DNA of 64,000 nt from an uncultured Nitrososphaerota archaeon (GTDB lineage Archaea; Thermoproteota; Nitrososphaeria; Nitrososphaerales; Gagatemarchaeaceae): contig CAWISW010000002.1 of the NCBI GenBank assembly GCA_963838925.1, forward strand, positions 384,001 through 448,000, written 5' to 3'. A program made the translations under genes and the position numbers. The notes under the pieces were generated by a model. It was not told where the DNA came from, searched no databases, and saw nothing but the letters and a program-made list of their open reading frames with translations. Below are positions 6,791-51,413 of this stretch, in pieces; position 1 is the first letter of the stretch; each line of letters starts with the position of its first letter.

Positions 6791-7540
6791 CTACTCGAAA
6801 CCTTTCTCGGTGAGCCTGAATTTCACGGGTTGTGCGGCATTCCGGGGCGACTCGACGTTGGCGTAGACGAAACTGCCCTGCCTTCTGAGCCGGATCGACT
6901 TGCTGACGAACCTCCCGAGGGTGAGGCCGCCCAGGTTGATGTCCTGGGTGACGCCGTTCCGGGTCACGGAGGCCACCCTGTTCGTGAGCAAGACGACCCT
7001 GCGGTGAAAGTAGGCGTCCAGCGCGATGCGGTTGAGGTACACGCCAAGAGCCCCCTGCCGCCTCCCCACCCTCTCCCTGTCGGGGAACTCGAGGGAGAAG
7101 TTCTTCGTGACCGTGTCTATGACGACAAGCTTCGCCGAGCTGACACGTGGGTCGTCGGCCATCCGCTTCAGGACGTGGGACTGCGCCTCGACGTCGCGGG
7201 CCCGAACGGAGAACACGCCCTCCAGCGTCGCCTTCGGCTCGAGCCCCCTCGCCTCCGCCATCTGGACGACCCTCTCCGGCCGGAAGGTCGACTCCGTGTC
7301 CACGTAGACCGACTTCCACCCGTTGGCCGCCGCGATGACCGTGGCCTGCATGGCGAGCTGGGTCTTGCCAGAGTTGCTCGGCCCGAAGACCTCGGTTATC
7401 TTTCCCTCCTCGTACCCGCCGCCTATCAGCCCGTCCATCCCGTCGGATCCGGTGCTCAGCTTCCCTAGAGAACGGGCGGCACCAAGCGCCTGGGCGAACG
7501 TTAGCGACCTCAGCTCGTTGCTGGGCGTCGGATCGGGCAA
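6791..7540 (-). CDS. RadA paralog / RadB-like RecA-family ATPase (no N-terminal HhH domain)
   Basis: ITEVFGPSNSGKTQL Walker A, YVDTESTFRPER, LVVIDT Walker B, LLTNRV. Confidence 0.85.
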   Translation of the reverse strand: MPDPTPSNELRSLTFAQALGAARSLGKLSTGSDGMDGLIGGGYEEGKITEVFGPSNSGKTQLAMQATVIAAANGWKSVYVDTESTFRPERVVQMAEARGLEPKATLEGVFSVRARDVEAQSHVLKRMADDPRVSSAKLVVIDTVTKNFSLEFPDRERVGRRQGALGVYLNRIALDAYFHRRVVLLTNRVASVTRNGVTQDINLGGLTLGRFVSKSIRLRRQGSFVYANVESPRNAAQPVKFRLTEKGFE

Positions 7541-7544
7541 GGGG

Positions 7545-7706
7545 TCAGGCCTCTTCTCTCTCGACCGCGCGGACCATTTCTGTTATCGTCTTCGCTTCTG
7601 GGTCCATCCGTGTTAGCTTCATCACGTCGCCCGCATCGACCGAGCACTCCCGAAGCATCTTGAGGTAGAACCACGTGCGCAGCCGAACGGCCTTCAAACC
7701 CGGCAC
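7545..7706 (-). CDS. Small hypothetical protein
   Basis: About 53-codon ORF filling the gap and ending 4 nt before the RadA paralog start; start uncertain. Confidence 0.35.
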   Translation of the reverse strand: MPGLKAVRLRTWFYLKMLRECSVDAGDVMKLTRMDPEAKTITEMVRAVEREEA

Positions 7707-47094: not shown

Positions 47095-48238
47095 TTCGCC
47101 GGAACTCTCTTCGCTGTTCCGGACGCATCGGCGGTGGCTCCTTATACTTTATCTTGATCTCGGCGAGCCTCTTCTCAAAGAGCCCGGTCAGCTCGCCCGC
47201 CTTCTCGCCCCGGTAGTAGTCGATGCGGGCCGCGATCGCAATCTTGTTCGCCAGCGTCCTTGCGATCTTCCCCCTCTGCCACTTGGGCGCCATGTGCACC
47301 GCCTCGTGCTGGAAGAGTATGCCGTGCTTGGGGGGCCTCGACCCCGTCCTGATCGCCCTGAAGAGGGCCTTCTCAGCCCCCAGGACCTGTATCGTGCTCG
47401 CGGGAAGCCTAGCCATCCTCTCGAGCCCCCCCGCCCTCGCTATGAGCCGCGCCCCGATAGTCGCGCCCGCGACTGCCGTGATGTTGGGCGCGATCTTGTT
47501 CATCGTCGACTCCACCGTCTCGGCCATCTTCTCCCTCTCTGCGGCGGTCTTGACCGCCAGCTCGGCGAGGCCGATGATGCGGCGGATGTCCCTCTCCGAA
47601 ATGGTGCCCCCCTTCGACTTCTCGGCGGCGAGGACTATCGCCTCCGCCTTCTTGTCGCCGAACCCCTGCTTCTCCAGGGACTCTACGTCGAAGGTCCCCC
47701 GCCTCCCTATCTCGATGATCAGCTTCGCAAGCGCGAGGTTGTCCTTGAGGATGTCCTGGAGCTCTGGGAAGTGGAGGCTGTACCACTCCATCGTCCTCTC
47801 GGTCATGATGTTGAGGAATCGGTCGAGCTCGTCGAGAGCCATTATAGCGTTGACGAGGTGGAGGTCCTCCTTCGAGGACGCCTCGCTGACCTCGTGCTCC
47901 GCGGCCGCGATGGCGCTCGCCCTCGCGCTCTCCAGCGCGGTCCCGGCGTCGCTCGCGAACCCGGCCTTGGCGATGAGCTTGAACTTCCTCGCGTCGAGGT
48001 CGTCGCGCTCGTCGTCTGTAGTTATCATCGTCTCGATGCCGAACTCCTCCATCTTCTCCTTAGCGGGGATGCTCGAGACCTTCAGGCGCGAGATGCCCTT
48101 CCTCTTGACCCCTTCCGCGACCCTCTTGAGCCTCTCGTCGCGCGCCTGCCCCTTCTCCGCCCTCTCTGAGACCAGGACGTCGTCACCTTGGACGACTATG
48201 AAACCAGCGTCTGTCTCGTAGAGAATCGGCTCCGGCAA
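46988..48238 (-). CDS. nop5: Nop5 (Nop56/58) C/D RNP protein
   Basis: EWYSLHFPEL, IAPN, GARLIA.AG, PASTIQVLGAEKALF, PKHG, RGKIAR. Confidence 0.95.
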   Translation of the reverse strand: MPEPILYETDAGFIVVQGDDVLVSERAEKGQARDERLKRVAEGVKRKGISRLKVSSIPAKEKMEEFGIETMITTDDERDDLDARKFKLIAKAGFASDAGTALESARASAIAAAEHEVSEASSKEDLHLVNAIMALDELDRFLNIMTERTMEWYSLHFPELQDILKDNLALAKLIIEIGRRGTFDVESLEKQGFGDKKAEAIVLAAEKSKGGTISERDIRRIIGLAELAVKTAAEREKMAETVESTMNKIAPNITAVAGATIGARLIARAGGLERMARLPASTIQVLGAEKALFRAIRTGSRPPKHGILFQHEAVHMAPKWQRGKIARTLANKIAIAARIDYYRGEKAGELTGLFEKRLAEIKIKYKEPPPMRPEQRREFRRNDQQRPRYGRPGAGRRPGGKERRFYKKPRPGQQGV

Positions 48239-48289
48239 GAAAAGTTCGCTTGCTGCGTCGGCGGGGCACGGATAAAGGTTACCGCGTCA

Positions 48290-48751
48290 CTAGTTCGTCA
48301 CGGTCATCGTCACGTTGTTGGAGCGGGCCGTGCTCCCGTCGGCGAAGGTCACCACCGCGTAGACCTGGTTGACGCCCACGTCCGAGGGGTCGGCGGGGCC
48401 GGAGTCGATGACGTACGTGTAGTGCGTTGAGGTCACGTTCCACGCGAGGTCTCCGTAGACGTGGTTCCTGAACACCTGGTGCAGGGAGACGGGGGCGGTA
48501 GAGTTGGGCACGGAGATGGAAAGCAGCAGCTCCTGTCCGAGCGCGTAGGTCGCGTTCGTGACCGGGTTCCCGCTCGGGTCGATCGCCCTCGCCACCACCT
48601 GGACTGAGGAGGCGGTCGACGTGGAATGGTCGGTCGCCTCGACATACATTCCCAGGACCATCGCGCCCCCGATGACGAGGATGAGGATGGCTGCCACCGA
48701 GGACTGTCCGATAGCGCCCCTTGAGTCGAAGAGTTTCAGACTGCCGCTCAA
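48290..48751 (-). CDS. Secreted/pilin-like protein with class III-like signal peptide
   Basis: SRGA|IGQSSVAAILILVIGG; beta-rich C-terminus; TTG start 48751, TATA-like TTTAAG near 48779-48784. Confidence 0.55.
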   Translation of the reverse strand: MSGSLKLFDSRGAIGQSSVAAILILVIGGAMVLGMYVEATDHSTSTASSVQVVARAIDPSGNPVTNATYALGQELLLSISVPNSTAPVSLHQVFRNHVYGDLAWNVTSTHYTYVIDSGPADPSDVGVNQVYAVVTFADGSTARSNNVTMTVTN

Positions 48752-48905
48752 CTCCGGCGTGCCTCCAGCCTGCCCAGCCTTAAATAGCCGCCCTGAGCCC
48801 CTCATCAATACAGGAGTGTAAGGGTACGCCAACACACGGTTGGCCTCGAGGCGATTAACCTCGGCAAAGCCGATGGGCGGCTAAATAGTCTGACTCCCTG
48901 AGCAG

Positions 48906-49544
48906 ATGATGACTCTGAAGAACTGCAGAACTTGCGGTAAGGCTCTCCCCAAGCGCGACTCCCAATTCTGCGACAGAGCATGCTACTCCCAAGCCTACAG
49001 GAATGGGATTATCACGAACCGGGGCTGGTTCAGGAAAGGAATACCCTCTCTCAACAAGGGGAAGACGCTCGAGTCTTGGGTCGGCAAGGAGAGAGCCCGA
49101 GAAATTAGGCACAGGATGTCGGAGAACTCGAAGGGGAAGGCCGGTCAACTCAGGAGGTTGAACGAGGATCCGCGGGTCTTGGGCAAGAGAAGGCTTTCTC
49201 GCAGGTTCCACGAGGCAGTCGTGCAGACCCTCGTCAAGGAGTTTAGAACCTTGGGTTGGAGGTGCTACACTTTGTCAGAGTACGTCAAGGAAGAGAGGAC
49301 ACCGGACGCGATTTTGTTTGACGGAAGGGAGTTAGTAGCTTTGGAGGTCGAAGTGAAGAAGAAGTGGAAGCCCACCGAAGCTTCGATGACTCGGCGGCTA
49401 ACTGATTTGAATGGTTCGTCAAGATTCTTCGATAGGACCAGCGTCGTATTTCCAGATGAGGGACTCGATATGGCCGAGCAGGTCCCCATGCTTGTTGGCG
49501 AGATATTGAATCGCAAAAGATTATATGAGGACTCCCCGAGCTAG
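48906..49544 (+). CDS. Homing-endonuclease-like protein (Zn finger + NUMOD-like motifs + PD-(D/E)xK-type domain)
   Basis: CRTC...FCDRAC; GWFRKG...NKGK and EIRHRMSENSKGK NUMOD3-like motifs; TPDAIL...ALEVE; more AT-rich than flanks. Confidence 0.7.
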   Translation: MMTLKNCRTCGKALPKRDSQFCDRACYSQAYRNGIITNRGWFRKGIPSLNKGKTLESWVGKERAREIRHRMSENSKGKAGQLRRLNEDPRVLGKRRLSRRFHEAVVQTLVKEFRTLGWRCYTLSEYVKEERTPDAILFDGRELVALEVEVKKKWKPTEASMTRRLTDLNGSSRFFDRTSVVFPDEGLDMAEQVPMLVGEILNRKRLYEDSPS

Positions 49545-49568
49545 AAATCGGAGGATTGAAAATACAAC

Positions 49569-49764
49569 ATGCCGACCCACGGGAGTCAGCAGCTAAGAGC
49601 AACTCTTACTGCCTCCAATCACTAAGGCCGGGAAAGTCCGATCGCAAACTCCGAAGATCGAGGGGAAGGTCCACAGAAGCAAGATCCCTAAGGTAAGGAA
49701 CACCCGGACCTACATCAAGAGATTTACTCTAAAGAGAAAACCTGGACAGAATTGGAGACTTTAG
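49569..49764 (+). CDS. rps30e: 30S ribosomal protein eS30, split: join(49569..49587,49619..49764)
   Basis: Spliced product [54 protein letters not shown] (54 aa); absent from the ORF track. Confidence 0.9.
49588..49618 (+). other. 31-nt bulge-helix-bulge pre-mRNA intron
   Basis: Helix GGAG:CTCC, 3-nt bulges TCA and AAT, internal hairpin GCAG-C-TAAGAG-CAA-CTCTTA-CTGC. Confidence 0.82.
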
Positions 49765-51377
49765 ACTCCGATTCTCAAGACGGCAGAGAGGCGGCGGCTA
49801 TCTCCTCGATAGTCGTCTCCATTCTCTCTGGCCAGATTGCCTCACGCCACCAGCTCGAGCAGGCCAAGAAGGAGGCCGCCAAGCGTCACCGCCTCGACAA
49901 GTTCCTCACAAACTCTCAGATCTACCTCGCGCTCACACCGGAAGAGAGGAACGGGAGGAAGGAGATCTTCAGGGTCCACCCGCGAAGGAGCGCATCGGGC
50001 ATAGTGATCGTCACGGTCTTCACCTCTCCCGCGAGCTGCCCGCACGGGACCTGCGTCTATTGCCCGGGAGGGCCCTCCATGGGCACGCCCCAGAGCTACG
50101 TCCCCGACGGCCCGAGCATGCGGGGTGCCAAGGCGGTGGGCTTCGACCCGTTCCTTCAGGCCCAGAAAATGCTGAAGAAGTACCTCGACAGGGGGCACGA
50201 GGCGTCCAAGGTCGAGTTGATGGTCGAGGGCGGGACGTTCCTCGCGATGCCCCGCGACTACCAGAAGTGGTTCATCAAGGGCGCCTTCGACGGGCTGAAC
50301 TGCGCCCCCACCCCGACAGCCTCGCTGGAGCAGGCGCATGCCGCCAACGAGTCCGCCGAGTACAGGTCGGTCGGGCTGACGATCGAGACCAAGCCAGACT
50401 GGTGCCGCCCCGAGCACGTTGACATGCTTCTCTCGTACGGCGTCACAAAGGTGGAGATAGGCGTCCAGGCGCTGAGGGACGAGATACTCGCCAGGAGCAA
50501 CCGGGGCCACACGGTGCAGGACACGGTCGACGCCTTCCAGGCCGCGCGGGACTCCGGCCTGAAGATAGCGGCCCACATGATGCCCGGGCTTCCGGGGTCT
50601 AACCCGGGGGACGACCTAGCCGACCTCCTAAGGCTCTTCGAGGACGAGTCGCTCAGGCCGGACATGATGAAGCTGTACCCGACGACGGTGGTCAGGGGGA
50701 CCGCCCTGGCGAAGATGTGCGAGGCGGGCCTCTACAGGCCCTACGACCTCGAGACCGTCGTGAGACTCATCGCCGAGATGAAGGTCCACGTCCCGAGCTG
50801 GCACAGGATCATGAGAATCCAGCGCGAGATCCCAGAGGCGGACATCACCGCCGGGAGCAGGGCGGGAAACCTCCGGGAGCTGGTCCTGGCGAAGGTGAAG
50901 GAGGACGGGAACTCGTGCGGCTGCATACGGTGCCGGGAGGTGGCCATGGACTCGCCATCAGCGCTCGGGGAGAGCGAGCAGGGAGACCTGGTCATGCGAA
51001 AGCAAGACTACGGGGCCTCAGGGGGGACAGAGGTCTTCGGGACATACGAGTACGAGAAGACGGGGAAGCTCGCCGGGTTCGTCAGGATGAGGTCCCCATC
51101 CGACGTGGCGCACCGGCGTGAGCTGCAGGGCGGAGCGTGCATCGTCAGGGAGCTCAAGGTCTACGGGAGGGTGGTGTCCGTCGGCTCCCACGACGAACAG
51201 GCTTTCCAGCATCGCGGCCTTGGCCACTCCCTCTTGGAGGCGATGGAGCAGGAGGCGCGAGAGGCCTTCGACGCCCGCACCCTCCTCGTGATGAGCGCGG
51301 TCGGGACTAGGAACTATTACCGCAAGTTCGGGTACGAGCGGCTCGGCCCGTACATGGCGAAGCAGCTGCCAGCATAG
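49752..51377 (+). CDS. elp3: Elp3 tRNA U34 carboxymethyltransferase (radical SAM + acetyltransferase)
   Basis: CPHGTCVYCPGG, GGTF, IETKPD, VEIGVQ, HMMPGLPG, RIQREIP, CIRCRE, RELKVYG, QHRGLG; true start may be slightly downstream. Confidence 0.95.
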   Translation: METLDSDSQDGREAAAISSIVVSILSGQIASRHQLEQAKKEAAKRHRLDKFLTNSQIYLALTPEERNGRKEIFRVHPRRSASGIVIVTVFTSPASCPHGTCVYCPGGPSMGTPQSYVPDGPSMRGAKAVGFDPFLQAQKMLKKYLDRGHEASKVELMVEGGTFLAMPRDYQKWFIKGAFDGLNCAPTPTASLEQAHAANESAEYRSVGLTIETKPDWCRPEHVDMLLSYGVTKVEIGVQALRDEILARSNRGHTVQDTVDAFQAARDSGLKIAAHMMPGLPGSNPGDDLADLLRLFEDESLRPDMMKLYPTTVVRGTALAKMCEAGLYRPYDLETVVRLIAEMKVHVPSWHRIMRIQREIPEADITAGSRAGNLRELVLAKVKEDGNSCGCIRCREVAMDSPSALGESEQGDLVMRKQDYGASGGTEVFGTYEYEKTGKLAGFVRMRSPSDVAHRRELQGGACIVRELKVYGRVVSVGSHDEQAFQHRGLGHSLLEAMEQEAREAFDARTLLVMSAVGTRNYYRKFGYERLGPYMAKQLPA

Positions 51378-51413
51378 AGGGGCTAAAAGCGGCGGGCCCC
51401 GACCTCGTGCGCC

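Follow-up and report, generated by a model that had tools for sequence, protein, structure and literature searches.

How can full-length ribosomal protein eS30 be produced from a gene whose reading frame closes after 18 codons? This question is raised by rps30e in a window of 64,000 nucleotides (nt) from an uncultured Nitrososphaerota archaeon of the family Gagatemarchaeaceae (assembly GCA_963838925.1, contig CAWISW010000002.1, positions 384,001 to 448,000); all coordinates below count from the first letter of this window. The gene runs on the plus strand from an ATG at 49569 to a TAG at 49762-49764, and after the first 19 bases of its coding sequence it is split by a 31-nt insert at 49588-49618. 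An earlier note on this DNA, made from the letters alone, had interpreted the insert as a bulge-helix-bulge (BHB) intron in the eS30 mRNA, and every coordinate that it gave, together with the 18-codon unspliced frame, was confirmed in the present analysis. We estimate the probability at about 0.86 that the insert is an archaeal BHB intron of the relaxed HBh' form, situated in the coding sequence of a single-copy rps30e, cut by the splicing endonuclease EndA and joined by the ligase RtcB. This interpretation follows from the anatomy of the gene, the conservation of the insert, covariation, the freezing of particular codons, purifying selection, the single copy and the presence of the enzymes. 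All of the sequence-level tests that were run support it, with a helix that covaries and a position that is conserved. The analysis also goes beyond the earlier note in three respects: the intron is family-wide, relatives contain a second, canonical intron, and those relatives that lack the first intron mostly have no canonical start codon.

Exon 1 (49569-49587, 19 nt, plus strand) comprises the ATG, codons 2-6 and the first base of codon 7, and encodes MPTHGS followed by a solitary C. This N-terminus is conserved in P0002, an intronless homologue from the same genus. Exon 2 (49619-49764, plus strand) supplies the last two bases of codon 7 and continues to the TAG; translated from 49621 it reads TKAGKVRSQ...NWRL, followed by the stop. 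The unspliced frame reads MPTHGSQQLRATLTASNH and then terminates. Exon 2 matches the Pfam family PF04758 (Ribosomal_S30) with an E value of 6.4e-8 and 33.1 bits (cut-off 27) over profile positions 7-57 of 58, and the NCBIfam model NF006817 (S30e) with 49.8 bits (cut-off 75) over positions 8-46 of 52. P0002 occupies positions 2-56 of the Pfam profile and 1-46 of the NCBIfam profile, the latter with 75.9 bits, and the NCBIfam cut-off is reached only by this full-length intronless protein and not by the exon 2 product. Exon 2 is therefore recognizable as a member of the S30e families in which the first 6-7 profile positions are absent. Since its matches start at positions 7-8, and those of P0002 at positions 1-2, the part that exon 2 lacks is exactly what exon 1 and the junction codon would supply.

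For BHB motifs the rule that cleavage follows the second base of each bulge comes from the tRNA literature. When this rule is applied in silico to the window's rps30e, the junction becomes AGU-CUC-ACU and the conserved eS30 N-terminus is restored. With introns excised in the same way wherever they occur, 82 of 82 loci read xPTHGS(L/M/I)TKAGKV(R/K)(S/G).

The geometry on which these cuts depend is found in the predicted RNA fold. The minimum-free-energy structure of 49569-49640 (-21.8 kcal/mol) contains a central helix H, a UCA bulge and an inner hairpin. It had been proposed that GGAG (49582-49585) pairs with CUCC (49613-49616), flanked by 3-nt bulges and capped by a 10-bp intron hairpin, and this fold is present, with the 10 bp divided into 4 + 6 by one unpaired C. 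The 5' strand of helix H lies in exon 1 and its 3' strand in the intron; covariation and RNAalifold both identify the latter, as does the minimum-free-energy fold. The helix measures exactly 4 bp between the predicted cut sites and pairs in 39 of 39 distinct family sequences (100% of cells) and in 59 of 59 metagenome copies. On its 5' side the bulge UCA (49586-49588), with a predicted cut at 49587/49588, is invariant in the 59 metagenome copies. On its 3' side the bulge AAU (49617-49619), with a predicted cut at 49618/49619, appears as AAU in 31 of those copies and as AGU in 28. The inner helix h' and its hairpin (49589-49612) consist of GCAG/CUGC, the unpaired C, UAAGAG/CUCUUA and a CAA loop, and are indicated by both the fold and covariation. 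Outside the bulges a single exon-exon pair, G49581:C49620, closes the 3' bulge; C49620 is the third base of Leu7, and the pair (7:62) is G:C in 39 of 39 distinct sequences. The earlier caveat that the outer helix amounts to one G-C pair is accordingly correct. Because the 5' bulge is closed on both sides and the 3' bulge by this single pair only, the predicted motif is assigned to the relaxed HBh' form. When the 1.84-Mb genome was scanned on both strands for BHB-like motifs of 14-120 nt, those at least as good as this one were encountered at a frequency of 4.4e-5 per site and length. A chance occurrence is unlikely, since the motif falls on the one junction that restores both the frame and the conserved peptide. 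When the intron was compared with the genome by blastn-short, no match other than its own locus was returned.

A survey of relatives for frame-breaking inserts at the same codon, as proposed in the earlier note, revealed that the insert is widespread. Matches to rps30e were obtained in 74 of 97 species genomes of the same family, and the 5' part of the gene could be read in 73 of these, the remaining one being a fragment at a contig end. Two insertion sites are apparent among the 73 loci. Intron A, the one present in the window, is found at the same position in 41; its length is 31 nt in 36 of them, 32 nt in four and 46 nt in one. In the 46-nt version (locus L081, genome G055) a GTC-type repeat in the loop of the hairpin has expanded by 15 nt, with no change to the boundary motif. 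Intron B, which is not present in the window's rps30e, occurs in 32 loci inside Lys12, six codons downstream of A, and measures 19 nt in 12 cases and 20 nt in 20. Intron A alone was observed in 28 loci, B alone in 19, both in 13 and neither in 13. Both sites lie within the first 36 nt of the rps30e open reading frame (ORF), and none of the intron lengths is a multiple of three. A second, intact rps30e was sought in the window's own genome, an assembly of 3 contigs that is 87% complete, and only one match was found. Three closed or near-complete relatives with an intron likewise have a single match: G105 (one contig, intron A), G007 (one contig, intron B) and G085 (100% complete, intron A).

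Outside the family, neither insert was seen in nine loci from nine other families of the order. A search of the order with the intronless protein matched 366 of 401 genomes. Among the matches listed, beyond which there were a further 219, those from other families all start at residue 1 or 2, as expected without an intron, except that of G169. The order-wide set included three unpublished genomes, G193, G296 and G303; only G193 is among the listed matches (residues 1-52, no intron), and the statement that sister families lack the introns therefore rests in small part on this genome. In G169, from another family of the order, the match begins at residue 6. Inspection of its locus (L167, bases ~186-230) shows an extra C after the Leu7 codon, a 1-nt insertion and not an intron, which is either an assembly error or a genuine frameshift.

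Covariation was examined in 41 sequences (39 distinct) for intron A and 32 (28 distinct) for intron B. In helix H of intron A, pair 9:57 is G:C in 28 distinct sequences and A:U in 11, and the change on the exon side is a synonymous one, GGG/GGA in Gly5. The inner helix pairs 17:52, 18:51 and 21:50 to 25:46 remain paired through changes on both sides. Overall, 91.5% of cells are paired; sliding the 3' partners by 1-3 columns lowers this figure to 26-46%. The covariation score of intron A is 0.232 against 0.103 for shuffles, and that of intron B is 0.502 against 0.166; in neither case did any of 500 shuffles reach the observed score, a control that overstates the significance because the sequences are related. 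The stronger evidence is provided by the slid controls and by the changes on both sides. In intron B, 99% of cells are paired, and two central-helix pairs as well as all four tested inner-helix pairs change on both sides. From the alignments only, RNAalifold predicts the central helix, a bulge and the inner helix for intron A, and for intron B it predicts a complete canonical motif of 3 bp, a 3-nt bulge, 4 bp, a 3-nt bulge and 3 bp. As modeled, intron B has the strict hBHBh' form, a textbook motif.

Among the exon bases that form part of the motif, synonymous sites are frozen. Ser6 is encoded by AGT and Leu7 by CTC in all 41 genes with intron A, whereas six and five codons, respectively, are used at these positions among the 32 genes without it. 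In the same way Lys12 is AAA in 32 of 32 genes with intron B and is divided between AAA (15) and AAG (26) in genes without it. Downstream of the introns, the ratio of nonsynonymous to synonymous substitution rates (dN/dS) over codons 14-51, calculated after saturated pairs were dropped, is 0.08 for intron-bearing genes (1194 usable of 1770 pairs) and 0.09 for intronless genes (59 of 78 pairs). This similarity implies that the interrupted genes are under the same purifying selection as the uninterrupted ones. Decay of exon 2, an outcome that the earlier note had held against an intron, is not in evidence.

Environmental DNA offers a further sample of this gene. A scan of metagenome contigs for the exon-1/intron boundary returned at least 120 contigs, of which 80 were kept; 60 of these are rps30e, 59 of them complete and one ending at a contig edge, and the other 20 are chance matches in unrelated sequence. 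The 59 complete copies include 47 distinct sequences, with intron A measuring 31 nt in 51, 32 nt in seven and 46 nt in one. Helix H is fully paired in every one of them, as GAAG:CUUC in 30, GGAG:CUCC in 27 and GGAG:CUCU in two. A corresponding scan of metagenome contigs for exon 1 directly joined to exon 2, the arrangement expected of a spliced cDNA or an intronless allele, returned 0 contigs. This type of gene is always seen with its intron. A search of the protein database with exon 2 found, among the top 20 of 62 matches, no full-length protein identical to this genome's exon 2, and there is thus no indirect sign of a spliced transcript from that source.

The public gene calls P0006, P0012, P0013 and P0015, all of them from genes with intron A, have false N-termini derived from the intron, for example LRWLPSI- or VPPF- before TKAGK. 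In these genomes a universal ribosomal protein is therefore mis-annotated or missed by gene callers.

Is the organism equipped to remove such an intron? The genome contains two ORFs that carry both EndA domains, of 190 and 195 amino acids (aa). The 190-aa protein (alpha) matches PDB entry 3p1z_B with an E value of ~1e-41 and 2cv8_A, 3ajv_B and 2zyz_B with values of 8e-41 to 8e-39, all of which we take to be crenarchaeal catalytic subunits. Its residues K45 and K47 align with K44 and R46 in the Crenarchaea-specific loop of the Aeropyrum enzyme. According to PMC3241643, it is this loop, with its two positive residues K44/R46, that confers broad substrate specificity. The 195-aa protein can be aligned with the structural, N-terminal half of two-unit enzymes, and its similarity to beta-subunit models is weak. 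An intact gene for the RtcB ligase is also present, and as judged by homology the genome encodes a two-subunit EndA with the broad-specificity loop as well as RtcB. PMC5829648 states that (alpha-beta)2 EndAs occur in Thaumarchaeota, and that relaxed HBh'/hBH introns are removed only by the loop-bearing types of EndA. ARAGORN, run with its intron search, reports only 39 tRNA genes in this genome, 20 with predicted introns at varied positions, and ten of these introns measure 10-71 nt, the longer predictions being doubtful. Met, Ile, Lys, Phe, Tyr and Asn are among the isoacceptors that ARAGORN did not find, which suggests either that tRNA genes are heavily interrupted or that the assembly, 87% complete, has gaps at these genes.

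Based on these observations, the following course of events may be proposed. In the pre-mRNA, GGAG of exon 1 would pair with CUCC of the intron and, together with the inner hairpin, would present the bulges UCA and AAU. An (alpha-beta)2 EndA would then cut after the second base of each, at 49587/88 and 49618/19. RtcB would join the exons and would probably circularise the intron, and the ligated mRNA would encode full-length eS30.

Several points weigh against the interpretation of the insert as a BHB intron. The fold energy is only modestly unusual (z = -1.99, with 4 of 200 shuffles folding at least as well). The AAU of the 3' site is not a closed bulge, being followed by the one G49581:C49620 pair; in the single-sequence fold it falls in the 9-nt strand of an internal loop, and the outer pair of intron A is absent from the RNAalifold prediction. 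The inflated significance of the shuffle control, mentioned above, belongs to the same list. A look for RNA sequencing runs covering 48000-51400 turned up none. Cleavage and ligation of rps30e, as well as their sites, are matters that we infer from sequence, and the activity of EndA on this substrate is assumed from homology. Finally, rps30e would be an isolated case in its own genome. A genome-wide screen for other BHB introns in protein genes started from 74,435 BHB-like candidates, of which ORF filters alone left 7421 at the true junction and 7350-7639 when the junction was displaced by 1-2 nt. Adding a coding score based on codon usage reduced these numbers to 264 and 241-268 (67 and 53-65 at the strictest threshold), and when candidates with a start codon near exon 2 were also removed they were 30 and 18-27. 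There was no convincing excess in this screen, which needs 50 open codons on both sides of an intron and is blind to short first exons such as that of rps30e.

Alternative explanations must be measured against the same data. The ribosome might pass the 31 nt by a frameshift, or by a take-off and landing hop of the kind associated with phage T4 gene 60, with the RNA left uncut. The insert lies in coding sequence, has a hairpin and is soon followed by an in-frame stop (TAA, 49623-49625), and it bears a superficial resemblance to the T4 gene 60 bypass element. However, the coding gap splits codon 7 behind its first base, and there are no matched take-off and landing codons on codon boundaries; a Ser-tRNA that landed on AAU or AGU before exon 2 would read CAC-TAA and not LTKAGK. 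The exon-2 frame, moreover, is closed by a TAA at 49594-49596 inside the insert, with no ATG, GTG or TTG downstream of this stop. A frameshift would lengthen the protein by about 10 non-conserved residues and, given lengths of 31, 32 and 46 nt, would have to differ among species, +1 for some and -1 or +2 for others. Recoding of either type leaves unexplained why the 3' end of the intron covaries with exon bases at the exact BHB geometry, and we consider it very improbable. We give slightly less credence still to a decaying pseudogene, or to production of eS30 from exon 2 alone, without the first seven residues. The unspliced ORF does end after 18 codons, and the four public gene calls named above are proteins in the exon-2 frame that have anomalous N-termini. 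Against decay, rps30e is single-copy, and 41 of 73 species as well as 59 metagenome contigs share the interruption; their exon 1 still codes for PTHGS, with variation that is synonymous, and dN/dS is 0.08. Against translation of exon 2 alone, its frame possesses no canonical start, and the N-terminal residues belong to the family profile.

If the RNA is indeed cut and joined, an activity other than EndA and RtcB, such as another nuclease or a self-cleaving element, might be responsible, and the lack of a proper outer helix at the 3' site would be compatible with this. Yet no Rfam family matches positions 49300-49900 at E values up to 1, nor does any match the whole window at gathering scores, and inserts of 19-31 nt are far below the size of known self-splicing introns. 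A 4-bp helix with 3-nt bulges, cut after the second base of each, is exactly the geometry of an EndA substrate, and intron B of the relatives is predicted to be the textbook hBHBh' form. An unrelated activity appears to us about as improbable as recoding. An assembly or sequencing artefact deserves the least weight of all: the genome is a draft in 3 contigs and 87% complete, but assemblies of 40 other species also contain the insert, as do 59 independent metagenome contigs, with 47 distinct sequences, which amounts to about 100 independent copies.

How does the proposed BHB intron of rps30e compare with known systems? Watanabe 2002 is reportedly the reference for a BHB intron in the cbf5 pre-mRNA of Crenarchaeota. 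According to Yokobori 2009 (PMC2738675), the cbf5 intron of Desulfurococcales and Sulfolobales is likewise a short, BHB-bounded element in protein-coding sequence; it too occurs in lineages with hetero-oligomeric EndA and is distributed patchily, with gain and loss among relatives. The host genes differ, cbf5 encoding a pseudouridine synthase and rps30e a ribosomal protein, as do the lineages (Crenarchaeota as opposed to Nitrososphaerales, of the Thaumarchaeota type). Unlike cbf5, rps30e has two intron sites six codons apart, and splicing of cbf5 was shown experimentally whereas that of rps30e is predicted from genomic data. In the genome analysed here, cbf5 itself is uninterrupted, with a TruB_N match in an open frame of 461 aa. 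The BHB intron in the 5' untranslated region of HVO_1309 in Haloferax volcanii resembles that of rps30e in being an EndA substrate in an mRNA, the processing of which matters for expression (PMC7714728). It differs in residing in an untranslated leader of a euryarchaeal gene, where no reading frame is interrupted. The HBh'/hBH introns of tRNAs, which are cut by loop-bearing (alpha-beta)2 or epsilon2 EndA (PMC5829648 and PMC3241643), share with intron A the relaxed class of motif, composed of a central helix, a single well-formed bulge and an inner helix, as well as the type of enzyme and the loop lysine. The host RNA of rps30e, in contrast, is an mRNA, without a tRNA body to assist folding or recognition. 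In the eukaryotic splicing of HAC1/XBP1 mRNA, an endonuclease cuts at two stem-loop sites, a tRNA-type ligase joins the ends and the reading frame changes. That system, however, relies on an unrelated nuclease (Ire1) and a different motif and is regulated by stress, and rps30e does not belong to it.

A 2009 paper reports that cbf5 was still the sole gene with confirmed splicing (PMC2738675), and a 2020 paper names only the crenarchaeal cbf5 mRNA as containing a BHB intron, apart from the authors' own case in a 5' untranslated region (PMC7714728). Our full-text literature search, with subscription-only papers and supplements beyond its reach, found no intron in rps30e or in any thaumarchaeal protein gene. 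The statement in the earlier note that none was known for rps30e, and that cbf5 is the established case, agrees with this result. Both the gene and the lineage are new for archaeal protein-gene BHB introns. A second gene in a different archaeal class would mean that EndA-dependent splicing of mRNA is no crenarchaeal curiosity. In addition, the 47 or more sequence variants, the two sites and the presence or absence of each intron among close species provide a natural mutational series for the recognition by EndA of relaxed motifs outside tRNA, and the same variation is suited to the study of intron gain and loss.

The intron state differs among close species. Loci with A, with B, with both and with neither are mixed among species in which the neighboring Elp3 proteins are 81-90% identical. 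In an Elp3 tree of 14 species from the window's own genus and one outgroup, a well-supported clade of seven (97/94) includes two species that have A, two that have B and three that lack both. At least two changes are required for each intron state even when only the starred branches are counted; the tree represents one linked gene, and the clade of seven is internally unresolved. The 5' regions track the intron state: genes with A have an aaagattaaat-type box and GGAGG, whose counterparts in most genes without A are a ctatata box and GGAGGTG. Since the 5' region differs along with the state, exchange of a 5' cassette is as possible as gain or loss of the intron itself.

The start codons also follow this division. 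All 41 genes with intron A have a canonical start, ATG in 34 and TTG in seven. Of the 32 family genes without intron A, 31 have a non-start codon ahead of PTHGS: ACG in 29, TCG in one and GTT in one. This codon is located 7-9 nt after a GGAGGTG-like Shine-Dalgarno motif, and upstream of it, as far as the first stop, 29 of those 31 genes contain no ATG, GTG or TTG in frame. This pattern suggests conserved non-canonical initiation, or some unknown fix, at rps30e in the genes without A. A literature search on such starts in rps30e gave nothing specific.

The position of intron A relative to the start codon invites speculation about control. An initiating ribosome is expected to cover the mRNA 14-19 nt after the AUG. 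In intron A the 5' strand of helix H occupies 14-17 nt after the AUG, and the helix plus the 5' splice site 14-19 nt, so that splicing would have to precede initiation, which would endow the intron with regulatory potential. It is conceivable, if rather unlikely, that the rps30e introns are a control device and not passive passengers, and that no other protein-gene introns known from archaea are gained and lost so dynamically. Were this so, a ribosome that bound first would melt the BHB motif and make an 18-residue dead-end peptide, and the output of eS30 would depend on EndA acting before initiation. Synthesis of eS30 would then be coupled to the capacity for tRNA and rRNA processing, or to feedback by eS30 itself; in eukaryotic ribosomal protein genes, which serve here as an analogy, introns act in such control. 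The ACG starts, found in 29 of 32 alleles without A, would on the same supposition be a second way to throttle rps30e.

Some further features surround the gene. Upstream of rps30e, an A/T-rich box (aaaagattatat, 49516-49527, plus strand) is a putative BRE/TATA promoter element, with a similar box, aaagattaaat, at an equal upstream distance in the intron-A genes of relatives. The GGAGG at 49550-49554 (plus strand), 14 nt upstream of the ATG, is conserved at this location in intron-A genes and may serve as a Shine-Dalgarno-like motif. A hairpin with a T-rich tail, resembling a bacterial-type terminator, is called on the minus strand at 49570-49591, where it overlaps exon 1 and the first bases of the intron. 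Probably it arises merely from the G+C-rich palindromic bases of this stretch, and we judge it irrelevant because no minus-strand gene ends there. The ORF that precedes rps30e (48906-49544, plus strand, 212 aa) has no Pfam match; near its N-terminus there is a CxxC...CxxxC cluster, and a D...ExK-like stretch recalls, by eye only, the PD-(D/E)XK nucleases. Downstream, a gene for an Elp3-like radical-SAM/GNAT protein (49752-51377, plus strand) forms the genomic context, and the order rps30e–Elp3 is kept in 21 of the 30 loci of relatives that were tested.

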